Positions 1,655-30,600 of a stretch of DNA of 32,000 nt are shown here, piece after piece. Both the position numbers and the translations under genes were made by a program. The DNA is from Deferrisoma camini S3R1 (GTDB lineage Bacteria; Desulfobacterota; Deferrisomatia; Deferrisomatales; Deferrisomataceae). Where the stretch lies: NCBI RefSeq assembly GCF_000526155.1, contig NZ_JAFN01000001.1, positions 3,070,264 through 3,102,263 on the forward strand, given 5' to 3'. The notes beneath the pieces are model-generated. The model saw only the letters and a list, made by a program, of their open reading frames with translations. It was not told the origin of the DNA and did not search any database. The stretch's first letter is position 1. Every line of letters starts with the position of its first letter.

Positions 1655-1702
1655 CGACGAACGACCTCCGACCTCTCGGCTTTCCAGCATTCTAGCGCCT
1701 TC
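1655..1702. repeat. Composite short-period repeat in the argF-argG spacer: heptads CGACGAA CGACCTC CGACCTC, then GGCTTTCCAGCATTCTAGCGCCTTC
   Basis: Read directly. Combines both short-repeat families seen elsewhere in the window and sits immediately 5' of the argG SD (AAGGGAG). Confidence 0.6.
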
Positions 1703-2924: not shown

Positions 2925-2974
2925 GCAAAGGCCCTCCGGCGGTGCCCTCAAAGGGCGCTGTGGGATTGCCCCAG

Positions 2975-3136
2975 AGGGGTGAAGCCGGGGCCTCCTCCTC
3001 CGCTGAACACCCTCGCAGGGGCCGCCACGGTTCGGTCCGCTGCGACGCGTGATAGCACGCGCCGCGGCCGCTCCCTTGCACCGGGCGGCCCTTGCTGCTT
3101 GGGCGTCGCGCTCCGTCGGAGACCCCGGCTTCACCT
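2975..3136. repeat. Palindromic intergenic element (copy A) between argG and argH
   Basis: Terminal inverted repeat GGTGAAGCCGGGG (about 2978-2990) / CCCCGGCTTCACC (3123-3135). Architecture resembles the other palindromic elements in the window. Confidence 0.6.
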
Positions 3137-3247
3137 AAGTGATCCGTACTTTTCTTTCGAGGCATAAGGAAACGAGTCGCTCGGGTCTCGCGGGCGAAAC
3201 CGACGGTACGACCGCCTAATGTCCGGCGCGCCCTAGGGGCCCTGTTC

Positions 3248-3280
3248 GACCGTAGGCCGGAGACCGACGACCGAACCGAC
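3248..3280 (+). repeat. Heptad leader cassette (GACCGTA GGCCGGA GACCGAC GACCGAA CCGACAA) abutting the argH SD AAGGAAG
   Basis: 7-bp periodicity read directly. Near-identical core (GACCGTAGRCC..GACGACCGAA) to the cassette at 10186-10217. Confidence 0.65.
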
Positions 3281-3294
3281 AAGGAAGATTCCTC

Positions 3295-4692
3295 ATGGCC
3301 GAAAAACCCTGGGGCGGACGGTTTCGCGAAGAGACCCTGAGGATCGTCGAGCGGTTCACCGCGTCGATCGGGTTCGACCGGCGGATGTACCGCCAGGACA
3401 TCCGGGGGTCCATCGCCCACGCCCGCATGCTGGCCTCGGTGGGCATCCTGACCGAGGAGGAGGCCGACACCCTGGTCCGGGGCCTGGAGCAGGTGCTCGC
3501 CGAGATCGAGCGGGGCGAGCTGGAGCTCACCGAGAGCCTCGAGGACATCCACATGAACGTGGAGCACCGGCTCACCCAGATCGTGGGGCCGGTGGGCGGC
3601 AAGCTCCACACGGCCCGCAGCCGCAACGACCAGGTGGCCCTGGACCTGCGGCTGTACCTGGCGGACGAGGTGCCCGAGATCCTGGACCTGCTCCGGGGCC
3701 TGGGCGAGGTGCTGCTGGAGCGGGCCGAGGCCGAGGCCGACCTGCTCGTGCCCGGCTACACCCACCTCCAGCGGGCCCAGCCCGTGACCTTCGGCCACCA
3801 CTGGCTCGCCTACTTCGAGATGTTCCTCCGGGACATGGAGCGGTACCGGGACGCCCTCGGGCGGATCCGGCGCTCGCCCCTGGGGGCGGGCGCGCTCGCC
3901 GGGTCGCCCTACCCCCTGGACCGGGAGCGGGTGGCCCGGGACCTGGGGCTCGAGGGGGTGTGCCGGAACAGCCTCGACGCCGTGTCCGACCGGGACTTCG
4001 CCCTGGAGTTCCTGTTCGCCGGCTCGGTGGTGATGATGCACCTGTCCCGGCTGTCGGAGGAGCTGGTGCTGTGGTCGAGCCAGGAGTTCGGGTTCATCGA
4101 GCTCTCCGACGGGTTCTGCACCGGCTCCTCCATCATGCCCCAGAAGAAGAACCCGGACGTGCCCGAGCTCCTGCGGGGCAAGACCGGGCGGGCCTACGGC
4201 AACCTGATCTCGCTCCTGACGACGCTCAAGGCCCTTCCGCTCGCCTACAACAAGGACATGCAGGAGGACAAGGAGCCGGTGTTCGACACCCTCGACACGG
4301 TGAAGGGGAGCCTCGCGATCACCGTGGAGATGCTCCGGAACCTCAAGGTGCGGCCCGACCGGGCCCGGGCCGCGCTGAAGGCCGGGTTCCTGCTGGCTAC
4401 CGAGCTGGCGGACTACCTGGCGGCCAAGGGCGTGCCGTTCCGCCAGGCCCACGAGGCGGCCGGCCGGCTGGTGGCCCTGGCCGAGGCCCGGGGCTGCGGG
4501 CTCGAGGACCTGGACCTGGAGACCCTGCGGTCGGTGTCGCCGCTGTTCGAGGAGGACGTGTTCCAGGTGCTCGACCCCGAGGCGAGCGTGGCCCGACGCA
4601 CGGTGCTGGGCGGCCCGGCGCCCGACAACGTGCGCCGCGAGGCCCGGCTGGGGTGGGAGCGGCTCGATGCGATCTGGCCCCGGCGGGACTGA
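3295..4692 (+). CDS. argH: Argininosuccinate lyase
   Basis: 465 aa with KPWGGRF N-terminus and the fumarate-lyase family signature GSSIMPQKKNPD. Confidence 0.97.
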   Translation: MAEKPWGGRFREETLRIVERFTASIGFDRRMYRQDIRGSIAHARMLASVGILTEEEADTLVRGLEQVLAEIERGELELTESLEDIHMNVEHRLTQIVGPVGGKLHTARSRNDQVALDLRLYLADEVPEILDLLRGLGEVLLERAEAEADLLVPGYTHLQRAQPVTFGHHWLAYFEMFLRDMERYRDALGRIRRSPLGAGALAGSPYPLDRERVARDLGLEGVCRNSLDAVSDRDFALEFLFAGSVVMMHLSRLSEELVLWSSQEFGFIELSDGFCTGSSIMPQKKNPDVPELLRGKTGRAYGNLISLLTTLKALPLAYNKDMQEDKEPVFDTLDTVKGSLAITVEMLRNLKVRPDRARAALKAGFLLATELADYLAAKGVPFRQAHEAAGRLVALAEARGCGLEDLDLETLRSVSPLFEEDVFQVLDPEASVARRTVLGGPAPDNVRREARLGWERLDAIWPRRD

Positions 4693-8455: not shown

Positions 8456-8480
8456 TCCCCGGACGAACGCACGAAGCACC

Positions 8481-8518
8481 AAGCGGGGGATGCGCCGCAA
8501 GCGCGCCCCCCGCTTTTT
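8481..8518 (+). terminator. Intrinsic terminator after the DUF4352-like gene
   Basis: GC-rich stem AAGCGGGGG...CCCCCGCTT with an inner GCGC/GCGC extension, followed by TTTTT (8514-8518). Confidence 0.8.
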
Positions 8519-8545
8519 CGTGCATCCGCCAAGCCTAGGCTTCCC

Positions 8546-8602
8546 GGTAACTTCGGTCGTTGGTCGTCATTCGTCATTCGTCGGTCGTCGGTCGTCGGTC
8601 TC
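8546..8602. repeat. Orphan heptad cassette: GGTAACTT then seven 7-bp units (CGGTCGT TGGTCGT CATTCGT CATTCGT CGGTCGT CGGTCGT CGGTCTC)
   Basis: Read directly. Reverse complement carries GAAGTTACCGGGAAG, like the leader upstream of the ABC ATPase gene, but no gene follows it. Confidence 0.85.
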
Positions 8603-8633
8603 CTGGCCCCCAGGGCAAGTGGCTCTCGCCAAC

Positions 8634-8763
8634 CCGGCGGCGGGGGCCTGGTGGAGCACCCGCCTAACGGGCCGGGCCACCCGGAAGTTCCCTAGTTTCT
8701 AGTCTCTAGTTTCTAGTCTCTAGTCTCTGGCCGGCCGGAACCAGGCCCCATGCCCCGCCGCCG
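8634..8763. repeat. Palindromic intergenic element (copy D) with an internal 7-bp tandem repeat (CTAGTTT/CTAGTCT x5 at 8692-8726)
   Basis: Arms CGGCGGCGGGGGCCTGGT (left) and ACCAGGCCCCATGCCCCGCCGCCG (right). Lies between convergent genes, so it may also act as a bidirectional terminator. Confidence 0.7.
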
Positions 8764-8859
8764 ACAACGGCCCGGACCAACGCACGTTACCCTTCTCCGT
8801 TGTAGGGTCGCGCAGCGGCCCCGGGGGACCCCATCTTCGCCAATGCGCCGCCTCGCAGG

Positions 8860-9837
8860 CTACCGGCCCTGTCCTCCGTCCTCTGTCCTCCGACCCCCGG
8901 CCCCTGCCGAGCGGTCCGCGGCCCGGGCCACCTCGGCGAGGGCCTCCCGCAGCCCCGGGGTGGGCACGAAGGCGCACCCCTCGGCCGGGCTCACCCGCCA
9001 GCCCTTGCGTTCCCGCACGATCTCGATCCAGAGCTGCTGGTCCAGGTTCGGCTCCACGATCACCGCCCGCACCATGGCCCGCTGCCGCACGGGATCGTAC
9101 ACCACGTCCTTGAACGCCACCGTGGCCTCGCCCCGCACGGTCCGGGGCGCGAACCCCGCCGGGTCGAACCCGCTCACCGGATACCGGATCACCTCCACCT
9201 CCTCGGGCACCGGCACCTCGGGGTGCCGCACCTTCACCAGCCGGATCTCGTGGAACCGCTCCTGGCCGCCATCCACCCACTTCTCCTCGAACCGGGTCCC
9301 GAACCCCGGCCGGATCTCCCGCCGCTCGGCCCGCAGCGGACCGCCTCGGGCCTGCTCGCAGATCCAGTCCGCATAGGGCCCGTGGTCGGTGACCAGGTAC
9401 ACCTCGCCCCCGTCCCGGAGCCGGGACGCGACCAGGTCCTGGAAGGCCCTTCCGAAAAGACGCCGGCCCTCGTGCCGGTCCTTGGGCCAAGGGTCCAGGA
9501 ACAGGGCCACCACCCGGTCCACCGACCGGGGCGCAGCCACCCGGTGGAGCACGAACCGGGCGTCGGCCAGCACGCCCCGCACGTTCGCACACCCCGCCCG
9601 GGCGGCCCGCTCCAGGGCCCGGGCCAGCCGACCCCACTGGAGCTCCAGGCCCAGGTAGTTCCGGTCCGGGTGGGCGGCCGCCTCCCGGACCAGGCGCTCC
9701 CCCGTGCCCGGGCCGATCTCGATCTCCACCGGGCCGGGCCGGCCGAACAGGGCCGCCCAGTCCTGGGGCCGGCCCAGCCGCCACCACGGCACGAACCCCT
9801 CGGGCACCGGGAAGAACGTGCGCCGGCTGCCTCCCAC
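8860..9837 (-). CDS. trmB: tRNA (guanine-N7)-methyltransferase with an extra C-terminal domain of about 110 aa
   Basis: EIGPGTGE SAM-binding motif, LGLE, and FLDPWPKDRHEGRR (the FPDPWPKKRHHKRR-type TrmB motif). 325 aa, against about 210-240 aa for typical TrmB. Confidence 0.85.
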   Translation of the reverse strand: MGGSRRTFFPVPEGFVPWWRLGRPQDWAALFGRPGPVEIEIGPGTGERLVREAAAHPDRNYLGLELQWGRLARALERAARAGCANVRGVLADARFVLHRVAAPRSVDRVVALFLDPWPKDRHEGRRLFGRAFQDLVASRLRDGGEVYLVTDHGPYADWICEQARGGPLRAERREIRPGFGTRFEEKWVDGGQERFHEIRLVKVRHPEVPVPEEVEVIRYPVSGFDPAGFAPRTVRGEATVAFKDVVYDPVRQRAMVRAVIVEPNLDQQLWIEIVRERKGWRVSPAEGCAFVPTPGLREALAEVARAADRSAGAGGRRTEDGGQGR

Positions 9838-10140: not shown

Positions 10141-10184
10141 GCTTCGGCGCGTGAGGGCACGCGCCGAAGCGGGCCGAAGGCCCC
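10141..10184. other. Two adjacent hairpins in a divergent intergenic region
   Basis: 13-bp perfect stem GCTTCGGCGCGTG / CACGCGCCGAAGC with a 4-nt loop (10141-10170), then GGGCC-GAA-GGCCC (10171-10184). The second motif recurs at 20884-20896 and, reverse-complemented, at about 22050-22062. Confidence 0.65.
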
Positions 10185-10185
10185 A

Positions 10186-10217
10186 GACCAACGACCGTAG
10201 ACCGACGACCGAATTAC
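10186..10217 (+). repeat. Heptad leader cassette (GACCAAC GACCGTA GACCGAC GACCGAA TTAC) 5' of the aminotransferase gene
   Basis: 7-bp periodicity read directly. Same family as 3248-3280, 22007-22042, 30505-30532 and 8546-8602. Confidence 0.75.
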
Positions 10218-11582
10218 ATGAAGGACCTCTCCATGCGATCCTACGAGTCCCGATACCGCGACCTCACCCCCCGTTCCTCGGCCCTGGACGAGCGGGCCCG
10301 GGGCCTGCTGCCCGGGGGCATCAGCCACAACCTGCGGCGGTTCGACCCGTACCCCCTGTACGCGGCCCGGGCCGAGGGGGCCCGGGTGCTCGACCCCGAC
10401 GGCAACTCGTACCTGGACCTGTGGATGGGCCACTACGCCCTCGTGTTCGGCCACGCCTTCCCCCCCGTGCGCCGGGCCGTGGAGCAGGTGCTGGCCGGGG
10501 GATGGCACTTCGGCATGCCGGTGGAGGCCGAGGTGGTGCTGGCCGAGCGGCTGCGCCGCGCCGTGCCGGCCATGGAGAAGATGCGGTTCTGCACCAGCGG
10601 CACCGAGGCCACCATGTACGCGGTGCGCCTGGCCCGGGGGTTCACCCGGAAGCCCTGGGTGCTCAAGGCGGCCGGGGGGTGGCACGGCGCCAGCACCGAT
10701 CTGTCGTTCGCGGTGAAGCCACCGTTCCGGGGCGCCGAGGGCCCGGGCCTGCTGCCGCCCCGGGAGCAGGGGGTGGACCTGATCGCGTTCAACGACGTGG
10801 AGGCCACCGAGCGGGTCGTGGAGGCCCACCGGGGAGGGATCGCCGGCATCATCGTGGAGCCCATGCTGGGCTCGGGCGGGTTCCTGCCGGCCGACCCGGC
10901 TTACCTGCGATACCTGCGGGAGGTGTGCGACCGCGAAGGGGCGGTGCTCATCTTCGACGAGATCATCACCGGGTTCCGGTTCCGATACGGAACCCTGGCC
11001 GACGCCTACGGGGTCCGACCCGATCTGACTACCCTGGGGAAGATCGTGGGCGGGGGGTTCCCCCTGGGCGTGTACGGGGGCCGACGCGAGGTCATGGACG
11101 CGGCCGACCCCCTCCAGGCCAAGGCGCCGGACCGGCCGGTGTTGGTGGGCGGGGGCACGTTCAGCTGCCACCCGGTGACCCTGGCCGCGGCCCTGGCCAC
11201 CCTGGAGGCCCTGGAGGCGTCCCGGGCCGAGCTGTACCCGGCTCTTGAGGCCCGGGGCGAACGCCTGCGCCGAGGGGTCGAGGAGCGGTTCGCGGCCGCG
11301 GGCGTGCCGGCCGCCTGCACCGGCCGGGCGAGCCTGTTCATGACCCATCTGCTGCGGGGCGGCGACCGGGACCTGCGCACGCCGGCCGACCTGGCGGCCA
11401 AGACCTTCTCGGCCGCCAAGGACCGGGAGCTTCGGCTAGCGCTCCTCGCCCACGGGGTGTTCGCCGTGCACGGCGGGGGGGCGCTCTCGGCCGCCCACGG
11501 CGAGCCCGAACTCCAAGTCCTGCTCGAAGCCTACGCCCGCGCCGCCGAGGACCTGGCCCGGGAGGGGTTCGAGCAGGGCTGA
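10218..11582 (+). CDS. Class-III PLP aminotransferase, glutamate-1-semialdehyde 2,1-aminomutase-like paralogue
   Basis: HemL-like pattern (LPGGISHN, FCTSGTEATMYAVRLARGFT, FDEIITGFR, TTLGKIVGGGFPLG with PLP lysine). By analogy with the sister leader cassettes, the true start may be the second ATG at 10233. Confidence 0.85.
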   Translation: MKDLSMRSYESRYRDLTPRSSALDERARGLLPGGISHNLRRFDPYPLYAARAEGARVLDPDGNSYLDLWMGHYALVFGHAFPPVRRAVEQVLAGGWHFGMPVEAEVVLAERLRRAVPAMEKMRFCTSGTEATMYAVRLARGFTRKPWVLKAAGGWHGASTDLSFAVKPPFRGAEGPGLLPPREQGVDLIAFNDVEATERVVEAHRGGIAGIIVEPMLGSGGFLPADPAYLRYLREVCDREGAVLIFDEIITGFRFRYGTLADAYGVRPDLTTLGKIVGGGFPLGVYGGRREVMDAADPLQAKAPDRPVLVGGGTFSCHPVTLAAALATLEALEASRAELYPALEARGERLRRGVEERFAAAGVPAACTGRASLFMTHLLRGGDRDLRTPADLAAKTFSAAKDRELRLALLAHGVFAVHGGGALSAAHGEPELQVLLEAYARAAEDLAREGFEQG

Positions 11583-11610
11583 GATCCCCGGCCCGCGCGC
11601 CGCCGCACAA

Positions 11611-11640
11611 ACGAAGGCCCCCGACGCCGGGGGCCTTCGT
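11611..11640 (+). terminator. Hairpin terminator candidate after the aminotransferase gene (no T-tract)
   Basis: 12-13 bp stem ACGAAGGCCCCC / GGGGGCCTTCGT, 29 nt after the stop codon. Confidence 0.55.
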
Positions 11641-11796
11641 CGCTGTCACGGCCTACAGTCCCAGAGCCATAGAGCGCCCCGCGGGCGCAGGACTCTCCAT
11701 CATCCGGGACGACCGATGGGGGTGGATCTTCGCAACACCGGTGGGCCAAACGCCCGGTGTTCGGCGCGCACGGCGCGCCCTATGGGGTTGCCCGGA

Positions 11797-11842
11797 TTGA
11801 CGGAAAGCGGAGAGGCTGGCATATATTTTGGTATATACCAGC
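11797..11842 (+). promoter_or_regulatory. vapBC promoter plus palindromic operator in a local AT-rich island
   Basis: TTGACG (11797-11802), then an ATATAT -10-like block 17-19 nt downstream. Inverted repeat GCTGGCATATA (11815-11825) / TATATACCAGC (11832-11842) with one mismatch. Confidence 0.55.
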
Positions 11843-11862
11843 TTCGGGCGCGGAGGATCCCC

Positions 11863-12090
11863 ATGCAAACGGCAAAGCTGTTCCGAAACGGGCGGAGTCA
11901 GGCGGTTCGGCTGCCGAAGGCGTTCCGGTTCGCCGGGGAGGAGGTGTTCATCAAGAAGGTGGGGGGAGTGGTGTTGCTCATCCCCAAGGGCGATCCCTGG
12001 GGCGAGCTGGTGGGGAGCCTCGATGGGTTCACAGAGGACTTTATGGAGACCCGGCACCAGCCGGATCAGCCCGACCGGGAACCCCTGTGA
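11863..12090 (+). CDS. vapB: AbrB/SpoVT-fold type II antitoxin
   Basis: 75 aa. MQTAKLFRNGRSQAVRLPKAFRF is the classic AbrB-type VapB N-terminus. GGAGG SD. Stop overlaps the vapC GTG (GTGA). Confidence 0.85.
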   Translation: MQTAKLFRNGRSQAVRLPKAFRFAGEEVFIKKVGGVVLLIPKGDPWGELVGSLDGFTEDFMETRHQPDQPDREPL

Positions 12091-12491
12091 TCCGGTATCT
12101 GCTCGACACGAACATCTGCATCTACGTCATCCGGGAGAAGCCCGAGGGGGTCATACGGCGGTTTCGCCGGCTGCCCGTTTCGAGCGTGGCGATCTCCTCG
12201 ATCACGTTGAGTGAACTCGAATACGGCGTCGAGAAGAGCTCCCGGCCGGTTCAAAACCGATTCGCCTTGCTCCGGTTCCTGGCCCCCCTGGAGATCCTGC
12301 CGTACGGCGCCGACGCGGCCCGCGTCTACGGCCGCATCCGGGCGCACTTGGAGCGGCAGGGCACGCCCATCGGCGCGCTCGACACCCTGATCGCGGCTCA
12401 GGCCCTCTCGGCTGGCTGCGCGCTGGTGACGAACAACGAACGGGAGTTCCGCCGGGTGCCGGGCCTCCGGGTGGAGAACTGGGCGGCTTAG
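12087..12491 (+). CDS. vapC: PIN-domain ribonuclease toxin
   Basis: 134 aa with PIN acidic residues in LLDTNICIY, TLSELEYG, ALDTLIAAQA and LVTNNEREF. Confidence 0.9.
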   Translation: MIRYLLDTNICIYVIREKPEGVIRRFRRLPVSSVAISSITLSELEYGVEKSSRPVQNRFALLRFLAPLEILPYGADAARVYGRIRAHLERQGTPIGALDTLIAAQALSAGCALVTNNEREFRRVPGLRVENWAA

Positions 12492-13444
12492 CGCCGCTCC
12501 ACCCGCCGGAACCCGCCGGCCTCGATCACCGCAACGCCCGGCTCCAGGGCGGCGTCCAGCAGAAGGTTCAGGCCCAGGTTGTCCGAGGCGATGTGGCCGG
12601 CCAGCACCACGTTGAGGTGGTGCTTCTTGGCCTCCTCCACGTGCTCCTTGGAGAGGTGCATGCCCACGATGGTGGACACCTCGGTGGCCTGGGCGAACTT
12701 CTGGTACATCTCCTTGGCCCCCTCGGTGCCCCCGGTCATGTCCACGAAGATCTTCCCGGCCCGCGCCTTCTTGTCACCGGCCACGATCACCGGGCCGGCC
12801 TGGTCCCGTCGGGCCTCCTGGTACTCGGGGATGGCATGGAGCAGGTCGAGCACGTCCCCCAGGGTGCGGGGCTGCTCCCGGTCGAAGAGCTCCGTCAGGA
12901 ACGTGGCCACGCAGTTGTCGGCCGGGGTGTGCACGCACACCAGGGGCACGTCCAGGAGCCGGGCCGCGTCCACCGCGCGCTGGTGGTTCACGGGCTGGAT
13001 CCGCTCCGACACCTCCCGCAGCCGGGGACCCAGGATCCCCTCGGCCTGGCCCACGGGCACCCCCAGCCCGGCGTGGATGCCGGCCTGGATCCGCATGACC
13101 TCCGGGAGCTGGGCCAGGGCGTGGCCCCGGGGATGGTGGGCCACCACGGCGTCCACCGGCCGGCCCTTCTCCCGGAGCCGGTCGGCCAGCAGGATCTCGT
13201 CGCCCTCCACGTCCACGGCCACCATCACGGCCCGGAGCTCGGCGGCCGGGTCGCCGTGGAGGATCCGGGTGTCGGCGTAGGGGTTTTCGAGGCGCTCCCG
13301 GTCGAAGAACTCCCGGTCCTTCTCCGGAAGCTCCTCCCACTCCTTGGCCGCGGCCCTGAGGTCGGCCTCGGCCTCGGCCCGGCCCCGGGGGTCCTGGTCC
13401 ATCCCCTTCTCCACGGCCCTGCGGTACAGGTCTACGAGCGTCAT
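12488..13444 (-). CDS. NIF3-family dinuclear-metal-centre protein (GTP cyclohydrolase 1 type 2-like)
   Basis: ATG at 13444 (MTLVDLYRR). VVAHHPRG (HHP motif) and AGHIASDNLG near the C-terminus. The longer track ORF upstream is Arg/Pro-rich high-GC noise. Confidence 0.75.
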   Translation of the reverse strand: MTLVDLYRRAVEKGMDQDPRGRAEAEADLRAAAKEWEELPEKDREFFDRERLENPYADTRILHGDPAAELRAVMVAVDVEGDEILLADRLREKGRPVDAVVAHHPRGHALAQLPEVMRIQAGIHAGLGVPVGQAEGILGPRLREVSERIQPVNHQRAVDAARLLDVPLVCVHTPADNCVATFLTELFDREQPRTLGDVLDLLHAIPEYQEARRDQAGPVIVAGDKKARAGKIFVDMTGGTEGAKEMYQKFAQATEVSTIVGMHLSKEHVEEAKKHHLNVVLAGHIASDNLGLNLLLDAALEPGVAVIEAGGFRRVERR

Positions 13445-20898: not shown

Positions 20899-21990
20899 TC
20901 ACCCCGCCGGCCAGACTCGTTCGCCCGTGGCCACATCGAACCCCACGAGCTCCAGCGGGTTCAGGTACAGGAGAACGCCCTCCCCCGGCTGCTCCCGGGC
21001 CTCCGGCGGGCGCTCCACCGTGATCCGTTGCCCTCCGGCGTCCAGATGGAGCAGGACGGCCCCGCCCAGGTACTCGCGCTCCTCGACCCGACACCGCAGG
21101 GGACCCAGCCCCGGTCCGCTTCCGAGCCGGGCCGAGTGGGGCCGGAAGCCCAGCTCCAGGGGGCCGGGGGGCGCGGGCCCGCCCCCGCACCCCGCGGGCC
21201 ACGGCAGGGCCTGGTCCCCCACGTGGAGCACGGCCCCGTCTCCGGTACGCTCCACTTGGATCCTCACCAGGTTCATCGGGGGCGAGCCCACGAACCCGGC
21301 CACGAACCGGTTAGCCGGAAGCTCGTAGACCTGGCGGGGTGTGCCCACCTGCTGGAGGCGCCCCCGCCGGAGCACGGCCACCCGGTCCCCCAGGGTCATG
21401 GCCTCCACCTGGTCGTGGGTCACGTACACCGTGGTCGTGCCGAGCCGCTGCTGGAGCCGGCGGATCTCGGAGCGCATCTCCACCCGGAGCCGTGCATCCA
21501 GGTTCGACAGGGGCTCGTCCATGAGGAACGCCCTGGGCCGGCGCACGATGGCCCGGCCCAGGGCCACCCGCTGGCGCTGCCCGCCCGAGAGCTCCCGGGG
21601 CCGGCGGCCGAGCAGATCCTCGATGCCCAGTAGGGCGGCGACCTCCCGGACCCTGGTCTCCACCTCCTCCCGGGGAACCTTGCGCACCCGCAGGGGGAAC
21701 GCCAGGTTCTCGGCCACGGTCTTGTGGGGGTACAGGGCGTAGGTCTGGAACACGAAGGCCAGGTCCCGGTCGCCGGGCTCCACGCCGTCCACCCGCCGGC
21801 CGCCGATCCACACGCCCCCGGAGGTGGGCGCCTCCAGCCCGGCCACGATCCGCAGCGCCGTGGACTTGCCGCACCCCGAGGGCCCCAGGAGCACCAGCAG
21901 CTCCCCTTCACGCACCCGCAGCGTGAGCTCCCGCAGGGCCTCCACCCGGCCGAACCGCTTGGTCACCCGGTCCAGGAAGATCTCGGCCAC
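20899..21990 (-). CDS. Sugar-type ABC transporter ATP-binding protein (MalK/UgpC-like)
   Basis: GTG start. Walker [10 protein letters not shown], signature LSGGQRQR, Walker B FLMDEP, and a C-terminal regulatory/TOBE-like extension. Confidence 0.94.
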
Positions 21991-22006
21991 GTCCTGTTTC
22001 CTTCCC

Positions 22007-22063
22007 GGTAACTTCGGTCGTTGGTCGTCAGTCGTTGGTCGGCGGTGTGGGGCCTTCGGCCCG
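22007..22063 (-). repeat. Heptad leader cassette plus mini-hairpin 5' of the ABC ATPase gene
   Basis: Minus-strand sense reads GGGCCGAAGGCCCC-ACACCGCC-GACCAAC GACTGAC GACCAAC GACCGAA GTTAC CGGGAAGGAAACAGGAC-GTG. Confidence 0.75.
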
Positions 22064-22106
22064 CTAGGCAGCTAGGCGGCCAGGCGGCTCTTGAACCGCG
22101 TCATCG

Positions 22107-22292
22107 GGGGCATGGGGTCTGCTGGAGAGCCGCGTGCGGCTCCTTAGCTCGCCGCGCAGCGCCTCCAACGCTTGCACCGTGAAACCGTTCGCCCCCGGTC
22201 GGACCGTCATGAAGCCACCGTTGCTGCCTCCTGCCTGCGCGGCGAATCTCATGCCCGGCTTCGCGCGCGGCCGGAAGCAGACCCCATGCCCC
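22107..22292. repeat. Palindromic intergenic element (copy F)
   Basis: 17-bp perfect terminal inverted repeat GGGGCATGGGGTCTGCT (22107-22123) / AGCAGACCCCATGCCCC (22276-22292). Inner inverted repeat TCGCCGCGCAG (22149-22159) / CTGCGCGGCGA (22235-22245). Confidence 0.8.
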
Positions 22293-22506
22293 TCGCTCCC
22301 GAAAAGCGCGGGGATTGAGGCAAGTTCCTTTTTCACAAACAGGCCGCCTCGCGGCCAACCGGAGTTTCCAACCTGCATTCGAGGTGAGTGCTTTCGGGCC
22401 GATCGTTCCTGCGCTTAGAGAGACGGCCTCGCCGAAGCCGCTACGGCTCCGGACCGGCCGGACCTAAAGCGGCGGGCATTCGTCTCCTGTTTGCGGCAGC
22501 TTGGTA

Positions 22507-23331
22507 TCAGGCTCCCTTGACCCCGCCGGCCGTGAGCCCGGCCACGAGCCGGCGCTGGAACACCAGGAACAGCGCCAGCACGGGCACGGTCATGAGCACC
22601 GAGGCGGCCATGACCCGGTCCCAGGCCGTGTGGTAGGAGCTGAACAGGTGGTACAGCCCCTTGGCCAGGGTGAACTTTTCCGGCGAGTCCAGCAGGATGT
22701 AGGCCAGCAGGAACTCGTTCCACGCGATCAGAAAAGTGTACACGCCCACCCCGGTCAGGGCCGGAGCCGACAGCGGCAGCACCACCCGCATCAGCACCCC
22801 CGGCCGGGAGCAGCCGTCCACCCGGGCCGCCTCCTCCAGCTCGGGCGGCAGCGCCCGGAAGTAGTTGGCCAGCATATAGAGCGACACGGGCAGGGTCTGG
22901 GCCAGGTAGGCCACCACCAGCCCGGCCAGGGAGTCCCGGAGCCCAAGCCCGGTGAGCAGGGCGAACAGGGGCACCACCAGGAGGATCGGCGGGATCAGGT
23001 AGATCAGCCCCAGGGCCAGGCCACCCAGCCGGCGGAACCGGAACCGGAGCCGGGCCAGGGCATAGGCCCCCGGCGCCGCGATGGCCAGGTCCAGCGCCAC
23101 CGTGGCCCCGGCCACCACGAGGCTGTTGGCCAGATACCGCAGGAACCCCTGGGTGAACAGCACGTCCCGGTACGCCGCCAGCGTGGGGTGCCGGGGCCAG
23201 AACCGGGGCGGCAGCGCGAAAAGCTCCGAAAACGTCTTGGTGGACGACAGGGCCATCCAGTAGAACGGGAACGCCACCGCGGCCGTCAGGAGCGCGAGCA
23301 CGACCGCGGTGCCCAGGGCCGGGCGCCTCAC
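22507..23331 (-). CDS. Carbohydrate ABC transporter permease (MalG-like)
   Basis: 274 aa with the EAA-loop region ELEEAARVDGCSRPGVLMRVVLP. GTG overlaps the upstream stop (GTGA). Confidence 0.92.
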   Translation of the reverse strand: MRRPALGTAVVLALLTAAVAFPFYWMALSSTKTFSELFALPPRFWPRHPTLAAYRDVLFTQGFLRYLANSLVVAGATVALDLAIAAPGAYALARLRFRFRRLGGLALGLIYLIPPILLVVPLFALLTGLGLRDSLAGLVVAYLAQTLPVSLYMLANYFRALPPELEEAARVDGCSRPGVLMRVVLPLSAPALTGVGVYTFLIAWNEFLLAYILLDSPEKFTLAKGLYHLFSSYHTAWDRVMAASVLMTVPVLALFLVFQRRLVAGLTAGGVKGA

Positions 23332-29614: not shown

Positions 29615-30487
29615 CTACTTCTTCCTTTCCGGCGTGCCCCAGGGGACGGGCAGCCGGGGCTCCACGTTCACCCGGCCCACCCCTTCGGAGTCGGCGCCGT
29701 CGAAGATCCGGTCGGCGAGCCGGCCCTTCTCGTCGGCCTTCCACCAGTTGTTTCCGGCGTCCACGTCGTCGGTCTGGGCCTCGCCGAGCTTCAGATCGTA
29801 CTCCCGATCGTCGAAGTTGTTTCGCCGCAGCACCGCGCCGGTCACGCCCTGCCGGAAGAAGATGCCGGTGAGGTTGCCCACGAACCAGTTCTCCTCGATC
29901 ACCGGCGAGCTGTTGAGGCACCGGATCCCGATCCGGTTCTCCTCGAACCGGCACCCCCGGATCACCACCCGGCCCCCCTGGAACCGCACCCCGCCGTAGT
30001 TGTTGCGGAACGTGCAGTCCTCGAACTCCACCGGGGTGAAGTGGCTGTGCACGGCCCACGGGCCCCGCTCGAACACCACCCGCCGCAGGTGGGCCTCCTT
30101 GGCCTTTTCGAAGGAGATCACGTCCTCGAACTCGTTGTTGCGCAGGGGCACCGAGGTGATCTCGATCGGCGCCTCCGGCGTGCCCAGGGCCACCAGGCTC
30201 CCCAGCACCCGGATCCACGGCTCCGGGTCCTCGCCGGCCTTGGGCTCGGGCAGATCGAAGTACACGCGGGTGCCGGGCAGGAGGGTCAGGGTGGCGGTCT
30301 TGGTCACGATGAGGGGCCGAACCAGCCGGACCTCCCCGCGCCACACCGTGGGGGCGTAGAGGATGTGCCGGGTCTCGGTGCGGGCCGTGGCCGGGACCGA
30401 GATCGTCTTGGGCTGGGGCAGGGTCACGCACGCCGCGAGCCCCACCGCCGTCGCCGCCCCCAGGAGCCACCATCGCCGCAGACCCAT
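29615..30487 (-). CDS. Lipoprotein with right-handed parallel beta-helix repeats (NosD/CASH-like)
   Basis: Signal peptide with lipobox GLAAC. PbH1-like repeats (FRNNYGGVRFQGG, IRGCRFEENRIGIRC, IEENWFVGNLTGIFF, LRRNNF). GGAAGGAGG SD. Confidence 0.8.
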   Translation of the reverse strand: MGLRRWWLLGAATAVGLAACVTLPQPKTISVPATARTETRHILYAPTVWRGEVRLVRPLIVTKTATLTLLPGTRVYFDLPEPKAGEDPEPWIRVLGSLVALGTPEAPIEITSVPLRNNEFEDVISFEKAKEAHLRRVVFERGPWAVHSHFTPVEFEDCTFRNNYGGVRFQGGRVVIRGCRFEENRIGIRCLNSSPVIEENWFVGNLTGIFFRQGVTGAVLRRNNFDDREYDLKLGEAQTDDVDAGNNWWKADEKGRLADRIFDGADSEGVGRVNVEPRLPVPWGTPERKK

Positions 30488-30504
30488 CGCCCGCCTCCTT
30501 CCAT

Positions 30505-30532
30505 GTAACTTCGGTCGTCAGTCGTCGGTCGA
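30505..30532 (-). repeat. Heptad leader cassette 5' of the beta-helix lipoprotein gene
   Basis: Minus-strand sense reads TCGACCG ACGACTG ACGACCG AAGTTAC ATGGAAGGAGG CGGGCG ATG. Confidence 0.75.
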
Positions 30533-30557
30533 AAGCTCGCCCCGACATCGGAGCCGG

Positions 30558-30600
30558 GGGGCATGGGGCCTGGTGGAGCGGCAGACAACGGCACGCGAAG
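30558..30600. repeat. Half copy of the palindromic element family (copy G)
   Basis: GGGGCATGGGGCCTGGTGGAGCGG shares the GGGGCYTGGTGGAGC core with copies B and D. It is the reverse complement of the right arm at 8740-8757. Confidence 0.6.

Follow-up and report, generated by a model that had tools for sequence, protein, structure and literature searches.

Cassette copies within the window

The window, by which we mean the whole stretch of 32,000 nt, lies in a genome (G000) that consists of a single contig of 4.24 Mb with 70% GC. Short arrays with a 7-nt unit stand in the leaders of five of its genes, which encode an ABC ATPase, a beta-helix protein, a class-III aminotransferase, ArgH and ArgG. 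These genes are unrelated by Pfam (ABC_tran/TOBE, Beta_helix/NosD, Aminotran_3, Lyase_1/ASL_C2 and Arginosuc_synth, argininosuccinate synthase, respectively). An earlier note on this DNA had quoted five such cassettes, and direct reading of the sequence recovered all of them as described, with offsets of 1-2 nt. The mini-hairpin that it had placed before both the ATPase and the aminotransferase copies was likewise seen, at 22062-22050 on the minus strand and at 10171-10183 on the plus strand. At argG, where it had listed a shorter version, the heptads at 1655-1675 are related ones of a different flavour and are followed by octads. The features are as follows.

22063..22089, minus strand: octad array AGCCGCCT GGCCGCCT AGCTGCCT AGC, 5' of the hairpin in the ABC-ATPase leader, read directly
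22050..22062, minus strand: mini-hairpin GGGCCGAAGGCCC with a 5-bp stem and a GAA loop, ABC-ATPase leader
22013..22040, minus strand: heptads GACCAAC GACTGAC GACCAAC GACCGAA, ABC-ATPase leader, read directly
22000..22019, minus strand: right end GACCGAAGTTAC-C-GGGAAGG of the ABC-ATPase leader, conserved across 111 copies (GACCGAAGTTAC at 22019-22008, GGGAAGG at 22006-22000, then a nine-base spacer and GTG at 21990)
21991..22506, minus strand: repeat mosaic of 516 nt from the permease stop to the ATPase start, with the cassette at its end; an insertion relative to sister taxa
30494..30568, minus strand: beta-helix cassette, of a second type, with left module CCCCATGCCCCCCGGCTCCGATGTCGGGGCGAGCTTTC, three heptads (30530-30510), GTTAC (30509-30505) and ATGGAAGGAGG (30504-30494); ATG at 30487
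10171..10225, plus strand: aminotransferase cassette with hairpin (10171-10183), four heptads (10186-10213), TTAC (10214-10217) and ATGAAGGA (GAAGGA at 10220-10225)
3248..3287, plus strand: degenerate argH cassette GACCGTA GGCCGGA GACCGAC GACCGAA CCGAC AAGGAAG; ATG at 3295
1655..1702, plus strand: argG leader, with CGACGAA/CGACCTC-type heptads, then octads, before the argG Shine-Dalgarno (SD) sequence
8546..8602, minus strand: orphan expanded copy with seven units, then GAAGTTACCGGGAAG, and no gene behind it (array detected at 8580-8600)

The neighbour downstream of the orphan copy is convergent. Homology places the start of the aminotransferase at ATG 10233. The cassette variant in that leader, TTACATGAAGG, brings an in-frame ATG of its own at 10218 (plus strand), 15 nt 5' of the homology-supported start, and this repeat-borne codon was picked both by ORF lists and by our home-made gene finder.

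Genome-wide abundance and architecture

An array was defined as three or more in-phase GACY-NNN units placed head-to-tail. G000 contains 314 such arrays, and 297 of them are intergenic in a genome where intergenic DNA makes up 13%. The commonest units are GACCGAC (265), GACCGAA (240) and GACCAAC (197). A pattern search found 99 copies of the 12-mer GACCGAAGTTAC and none of the reversed pattern used as a control, an abundance well above what chance would give, and the hairpin GGGCCGAAGGCCC occurs in 223 exact copies.

Aligned copies share a modular order, in which an optional left part is followed by the heptads, GACCGAAGTTAC, two variable bases and GGAAG. The right boundary is sharp: information content is at background just after GAAGTTAC-nn-GGAAG (111 copies). 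The left part is of three types, namely TTTGGCGCGGTTCGAGAGCC with octads and hairpin, CCCCATGCCCCCC...GAGCTTTC, and ...GGGGCCAGGA. The hairpin stands 5' of 136 of the 297 intergenic heptad arrays, and in many of the 99 GACCGAAGTTAC copies the hairpin itself follows the octad module; the module GAGCTTTC stands 5' of 15 arrays in G000. In intergenic DNA the hairpin is combined variably with octads, heptads and a palindromic core of 187 bp. About a third of the intergenic arrays (99 of 297) have no hairpin, octads or palindromic core within 160 nt, and simple co-transposition with a larger element fails to explain these. Longer units are also repeated. A 105-nt tail that includes the cassette is present in 75 near-full copies and a 364-nt composite in 20 (G000); copies of the tail, core and composite are 78-95% identical, and no two are the same.

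The palindromic core lies upstream of the ATPase cassette at 22106-22292 of the window (minus strand) and has 138 near-full copies in G000, with 78-95% identity. Its end modules are GGAAGCCCC...CCCTACAACGGAGAAGGGTAAC on the left and ...CAGACCCCATGCCCCCC on the right. It is also found, in dozens of copies, in the related genomes G001 and G002, with weaker copies in another genus (G004).

G000, G001, G002 and G003 represent the four species of the genus, and all four carry the cassette family. GACCGAAGTTAC occurs 99, 67, 72 and 5 times in G000, G001, G002 and G003, and the pattern (GACCNNN)3GACCGA 185, 154, 71 and 36 times, respectively. Outside the genus, GACCGAAGTTAC has no match in two sister genera and at most two per genome, the level of the reversed control, in about 25 further relatives. 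(GACCNNN)3GACCGA gave no match outside the genus except for 1-2 in one other genus. The cassette family as such was not found in the two sister genera or in about 35 other relatives.

Orientation and position relative to genes

A home-made gene finder based on codon usage called 3717 genes (87% coding), and 35 gene starts were cross-checked by orthologue alignment. The earlier note had described a portable cassette placed before unrelated genes and proposed a genome-wide count of its orientation and distance relative to start codons. That count bears the description out, with a strong bias in both respects. In co-directional spacers 190 arrays are in sense orientation vs 35 in antisense (p = 6e-27); a further 52 lie in divergent and 20 in convergent spacers, roughly as these are available. 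Sense arrays end at most 40 nt from a start in 141 of 242 cases, compared with 50 +/- 5.5 expected when each array is placed uniformly inside its own spacer, a statistic that is partly circular because start choice included a small SD bonus. On both replichores orientation tracks transcription, with ratios of 136:17 where genes are on the leading strand and 54:18 where they are on the lagging strand, which leaves replication direction as at most a secondary factor.

The leaders of about 140 genes, about 3.8% of the total, carry a cassette. A predicted start lies 8-38 nt behind GAAGTTAC in 50 of 111 copies, so that about 55% of copies are without a start. Sense orientation dominates also among arrays distant from start codons, and SD donation alone is therefore insufficient to account for the orientation bias. 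Closure of reading frames, in which heptads or octads would supply stop codons in all frames, was considered and rejected, as only 10 of the 297 arrays close all three.

Filled and empty sites between species

G001 genes are about 95-97% identical to those of G000. At the ATPase junction of G001 (...AAGGGGGCC TGA GG GTG GCC...), the stop and start codons are 2 nt apart, and G005, from another genus, reads ...GGG TAG CCCC GTG... at the same place. In G000 the corresponding stop and start are separated by 516 nt that end in the cassette. This contrast indicates that a stop/start junction with translational coupling has been split by inserted repeats. The old SD of the ATPase gene lies inside the permease gene, now more than 500 nt off, and that of the cassette is the only SD in range. 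The G002 spacer is 321 nt long and contains the same hairpin; its left end is TGA/TACCAAGCTGCC (the slash marks the junction), its right end is GTTACCGGGAAGGAAACAGGAC GTG, both ends match those of G000, and it has no heptads.

Two smaller observations concern the same spacer. The G000 mosaic begins right at the permease stop codon, with the junction TGA/TACCAAGCTGCC (window 22495-22509, minus strand) that is also present in G002. A terminator-like hairpin, GGCCGCGAGGCGGCC followed by TGTTTGTG, is located at 22342-22356 (minus strand), between the permease and ATPase genes; if this terminator is efficient, the ATPase gene would need read-through or a new promoter.

Other genes of the window show the same kind of difference. 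The cassette is absent 5' of the G001 aminotransferase orthologue, which has its own SD, and homology resumes at ATG 10233. It is absent from argH in G001 as well, where a different spacer of 2.1 kb ends in its own GGGAG SD and homology again resumes at the ATG. The argG site is longer in G001 by exactly 14 nt, that is, by two units.

A wider comparison covered 814 kb of G001 and 35 orthologous gene starts with an array in G000. Unit number is the same in G001 at 7 of these starts and different at about 19, and the remaining 9 are without an array. In the reverse direction, 43 of 63 G001 arrays are common to both species and 20 are not. Arrays kept in both species differ by indels of 7, 14 or 21 nt where they consist of heptads and of 8-9 nt where they consist of octads, while the flanks are 95-99% identical. 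The overall range is 0 to 13 units, with one locus at 13 units in one species vs 2 in the other, and in several cases heptads in one species stand at the position of octads in the other. Several array-less alleles have the hairpin or octads joined straight to (A)AGTTAC and the same SD. Retention of the right end and the SD in these alleles indicates that heptads expand and collapse in place. To judge from these predicted leaders, the heptads are dispensable at individual loci, since zero-heptad alleles keep the right end and the SD. At one further locus the left module is exchanged and the right end is unchanged, which suggests that sequence may be exchanged between dispersed copies.

Large size differences occur in other spacers of the window. 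The argG-argH spacer (2925-3294) is 373 nt in G000 vs 2136 nt in G001 (L015), and the spacer at 8456-8888 is 432 nt vs 2776 nt (also L015). At 11574-12494, G000 has two small ORFs (11863-12491) where G001 (L015) has only 45 nt.

The Shine-Dalgarno sequence and leader RNA

The 3' tail of the 16S rRNA is canonical (CCUCCUUUCU / ...CACCUCCUUUCU), and GGAAGG can pair with it. GGGAAGG at 22006-22000 serves as the predicted SD of the ATPase gene, which starts at GTG 21990. Leaders of the GAAGTTAC type have an SD duplex energy of -10.0 kcal/mol vs -9.8 for other genes, which is typical of the genome. GGAAG at the fixed offset is no commoner near genes than away from them (17 of 43 gene-proximal copies vs 34 of 68 orphan copies); this equal frequency marks it as intrinsic to the repeat and not as a product of local selection.

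The filled and empty sites fall into two kinds. The SD and spacer are wholly different at the empty sites of the ATPase, argH and aminotransferase genes and of loci 1223934, 1487865 and c21-130572. The native SD is kept at loci 376881 and 2972721 (both GG/AAAGG..., with the slash at the junction) and c78-204177, where the junction falls within or just before it; three or more loci in all have an earlier SD that adjoins the cassette or is merged with it. Depending on the locus, the cassette either takes the place of the predicted ribosome-binding site or lies against the native one.

One hypothesis of the earlier note was that the repeats provide an unstructured ribosome standby site. The computed mean unpaired probability from -50 to -20 is 0.48-0.53 for cassette leaders vs 0.40 for other leaders, and around the SD it is 0.465 vs 0.41. 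Cassette leaders are thus slightly less structured, as the hypothesis had it, but the difference is small and bears it out weakly. The 5-bp hairpin is the sole robust pairing in the leader folds. For four leaders of the window, folding is no better than that of shuffled sequence (z-scores from -0.08 to +0.67), and an Rfam search of the window and leader gave no family at the gathering score, with chance-level matches alone at E<=10. The lack of an Rfam family and of a fold excess argues against a structured cis-regulatory RNA (riboswitch, leader or sRNA).

Insertion mechanism

The cassette showed no terminal inverted repeats and no consistent target duplication, and no enzyme that would mobilise it was found. 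G000 encodes four identical 166-aa open frames (stop to stop) with a full IS200-type Y1 domain. It also encodes several proteins of about 320 aa that combine an IS200-like Y1 domain with a DnaA C-terminal (DnaA_C) helix-turn-helix and are widespread in the order; examples lie at C1:483719-484681 (L102), 215094-216059 (L105) and 1933734-1934735 (L103). These Y1 + DnaA_C proteins score 64 bits against the RAYT model, below its cut-off of 80 bits. A RAYT/Y1 transposase was rejected as the mobiliser, given that the flanks are without hairpin and heptads and that the family is common in cassette-less relatives. A miniature inverted-repeat element (MITE) was also rejected: the left end of the cassette (hairpin or octads) is no inverted repeat of its right end (GAAGTTAC-GGAAG), and filled/empty junctions have no consistent duplication. 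A look-alike of a target duplication, GAAGGG(G)ACGA, is present at both junctions of one locus, with a weaker case at the ATPase.

A probable mosaic intergenic repeat module

The explanation that we consider probable is that the cassette is a genus-specific mosaic intergenic repeat module with a slippage-prone array, whose 3' end may serve as an SD or fuse with one. It is a new family of the intergenic-mosaic-repeat kind already described, not a dedicated RNA switch. Its core consists of the 13-nt GC hairpin, a GACCRAC-type heptad array, the anchor GACCGAAGTTAC and two variable bases with GGAAG(G), and is often joined leftward to CTAG-containing octad arrays or to the roughly 190-bp palindromic core. 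As shown here by comparison between species, copies have been gained, lost and swapped between spacers, and array length changes by multiples of 7 nt over a range of 0 to 13 units, which is to be expected of replication slippage.

Selection on translation could give the module its placement. GGAAGG is predicted to pair with the CCUUUC/CCUCC tail of 16S rRNA, so that a sense copy at the 3' edge of a spacer could replace the gene's SD or fuse with it. Such a copy would be tolerated even where the genes of an operon are tightly coupled. Selection would act against two other kinds of copy: those in antisense, through which the transcript would gain CCUUCC and G/U-rich RNA, and those that part a gene from its own SD. 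The bias in orientation and distance would follow from this. As for the A/C-rich heptads, they would be weakly structured filler of variable length between hairpin and SD and would carry no required signal. Of the three hypotheses in the earlier note, the third, ends of a small mobile element that donates an SD, fits best when read as part of a mobile or mosaic element: there are filled and empty sites, GGAAG is intrinsic to the repeat, and SD and spacer were replaced at several loci. It needs two corrections: an SD is donated at some loci only, and the heptads appear to be dispensable filler.

The strongest competitor, which we regard as unlikely, makes the heptads a selected cis-acting translation element. 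They would form an unstructured, C/A-rich standby or enhancer platform, or an array of sites for an RNA-binding protein (S1, Csp or CsrA-like), and the roughly 140 genes would constitute a post-transcriptional regulon, possibly tuned by unit number. The strong sense orientation, the proximity to start codons and the somewhat higher unpaired probability of cassette leaders speak for it, as does the resemblance of the UUACAUGGAAG right end to what we take to be the CsrA SELEX consensus, RUACARGGAUGU. Such a role was proposed for the TAACTGA heptamer repeats of Beggiatoaceae, which are placed in the same way (PMC4679880). A selected element, however, is hard to reconcile with orthologous leaders that vary from 0 to 13 units, with 9 of 35 orthologues that lack an array and with heptads and octads that interchange at the same site. 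Moreover, the genes downstream have no functional relation to one another, 55 arrays either run antisense or lie between convergent genes, no start follows about 55% of GAAGTTAC copies, and the structural difference is small.

Still less likely is a neutral reading, in which the arrays would be simple-sequence DNA that leaves expression unaffected and the bias would come from mutation itself through transcription- or replication-coupled slippage or recombination at SD microhomology. The very fast turnover in unit-sized steps and the small extra bias with replication direction are in keeping with this reading, and the junctions inside GG/AAAGG at two filled/empty pairs suggest joining at SD microhomology. 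Heptanucleotide repeats are, moreover, cited as the commonest class of long simple-sequence repeats (SSRs) in prokaryotes (Mrazek 2007, as quoted in PMC4679880). Local slippage, however, cannot place one 12-mer anchor and one hairpin at about 100-220 sites, and at the ATPase, argH and other loci the SD of the cassette is the only one in range, which argues that these copies are not without effect.

A more speculative variant, to which we give little credence, would have translation tuned heritably by slippage in the heptad array: a change in the number of unstructured C/A-rich units that separate a protective hairpin from the SD would affect how ribosomes load or how a genus-specific RNA-binding protein binds. 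If it were true, about 140 genes would have individually adjustable expression that changes over short evolutionary times.

A role at the DNA level, as a portable promoter of the Neisseria REP2 type or a site array for a DNA-binding regulator or nucleoid protein, is very improbable: REP2 and Borrelia IR repeats do combine promoter, ribosome-binding site and ATG (PMC3184786), GACCGTTGACC-containing copies hold a TTGACC hexamer and an efficient terminator in the ABC spacer would call for a new promoter, but a consensus scan of two cassette regions found no sigma-70-type promoter, TTGACC is present in a subset of copies only, the 7-bp period sets successive sites on different faces of the helix and transcripts that began inside the cassette would have almost no leader 5' of the SD.

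Read as a mosaic repeat module, the cassette provides a natural example of intergenic repeats that rebuild translation-initiation regions, with a coupled stop and start 2 nt apart now split by 516 nt. The downstream ATPase gene, as far as its predicted signals go, is now dependent on an SD carried by a repeat. For annotation, about 4% of genes in the genus have leaders of repeat DNA, and in-repeat ATGs (10218 vs the real start at 10233) and spurious ORFs terminated by repeats may mislead gene callers. For evolution, non-coding spacers turn over fast between species whose genes are 95% identical. The natural alleles, with 0 to 13 units, form a tractable set for effects of leader length and composition on expression.

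Comparison with known repeats

A literature search for the motif strings returned no relevant paper. The closest published analogue is the set of TAACTGA heptamer repeats found just 5' of start codons in Beggiatoaceae (PMC4679880). These direct repeats occur in marine Beggiatoaceae, some Cyanobacteria and Bacteroidetes and overlap the position of the ribosome-binding site, where canonical SDs are rare (MacGregor 2015, PMC4679880). Both systems are short 7-nt tandem arrays with more than 100 sets per genome, mostly intergenic and in forward orientation just 5' of the starts of unrelated genes; both have a patchy, lineage-limited distribution, and in both, function is derived from sequence analysis alone. 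The present unit, in contrast, is GACCRAC in a genome of 70% GC, and the array is followed by an anchor and an SD-like GGAAG(G) or a native SD, often with a hairpin before it. Gain, loss and changes in unit number between sister species are also documented here.

Cyanobacterial STRR sequences, reportedly described by Mazel in 1990, are a second point of comparison. The arrays described here differ from heptanucleotide SSR and STRR sequences in being short (3-10 units) and imperfect, in lying between fixed modules (the hairpin and GAAGTTAC) and in being strongly oriented with transcription. The likeness to long heptanucleotide SSRs, as these are cited from Mrazek 2007 in PMC4679880, lies in a 7-nt tandem unit, an intergenic and lineage-specific occurrence and whole-unit changes consistent with slippage.

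The REP/BIME sequences of enterobacteria (Delihas 2011, PMC3184786) also combine small GC hairpins and short motifs in variable order into intergenic mosaics and are present in hundreds of copies, including inside operons. Unlike them, the present family has a hairpin of only 13 nt without a GTAG tag, its main blocks are tandem 7- and 8-nt arrays, and no RAYT association was found. Related REP families are said to have been treated by Di Nocera in 2013. Neisseria REP2 and Borrelia IR-A/IR-B, in the accounts of Parkhill 2000 and Morelle 2003 as reviewed in PMC3184786, are likewise dispersed, lack terminal inverted repeats, stand directly 5' of unrelated genes and bring a ribosome-binding site. 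According to that review, REP2 measures 120-150 bp, has two stem-loops and carries both a promoter and an ATG; its copies, about 25 in number, are tied to a co-regulated gene set. The cassette differs from REP2 in having no sigma-70-type promoter detected in the two regions scanned, a copy number about ten times higher, a variable tandem array and no evident regulon.

Further repeats in the same spacers

Other short-period families share these spacers and also change by whole units between species. They include the heptads GACTAGA/TAGAAAC and GACCTGC/GACGAAC/GACCTAC, with up to 9 perfect units, and CTAG-containing octads (GCCTTCTA, AGCYGCCT). Example sites are C1:367088-367108 and 262675-262764 in G000 and positions 649-684 and 1676-1702 of the window. 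A palindromic, MITE-like element of about 270 bp, different from the core above, is inserted in G001 at c78:34306-34575 and c78:59273-59546 (L108 and L109). It adjoins heptad arrays at two loci, both of which are uninterrupted in G000.
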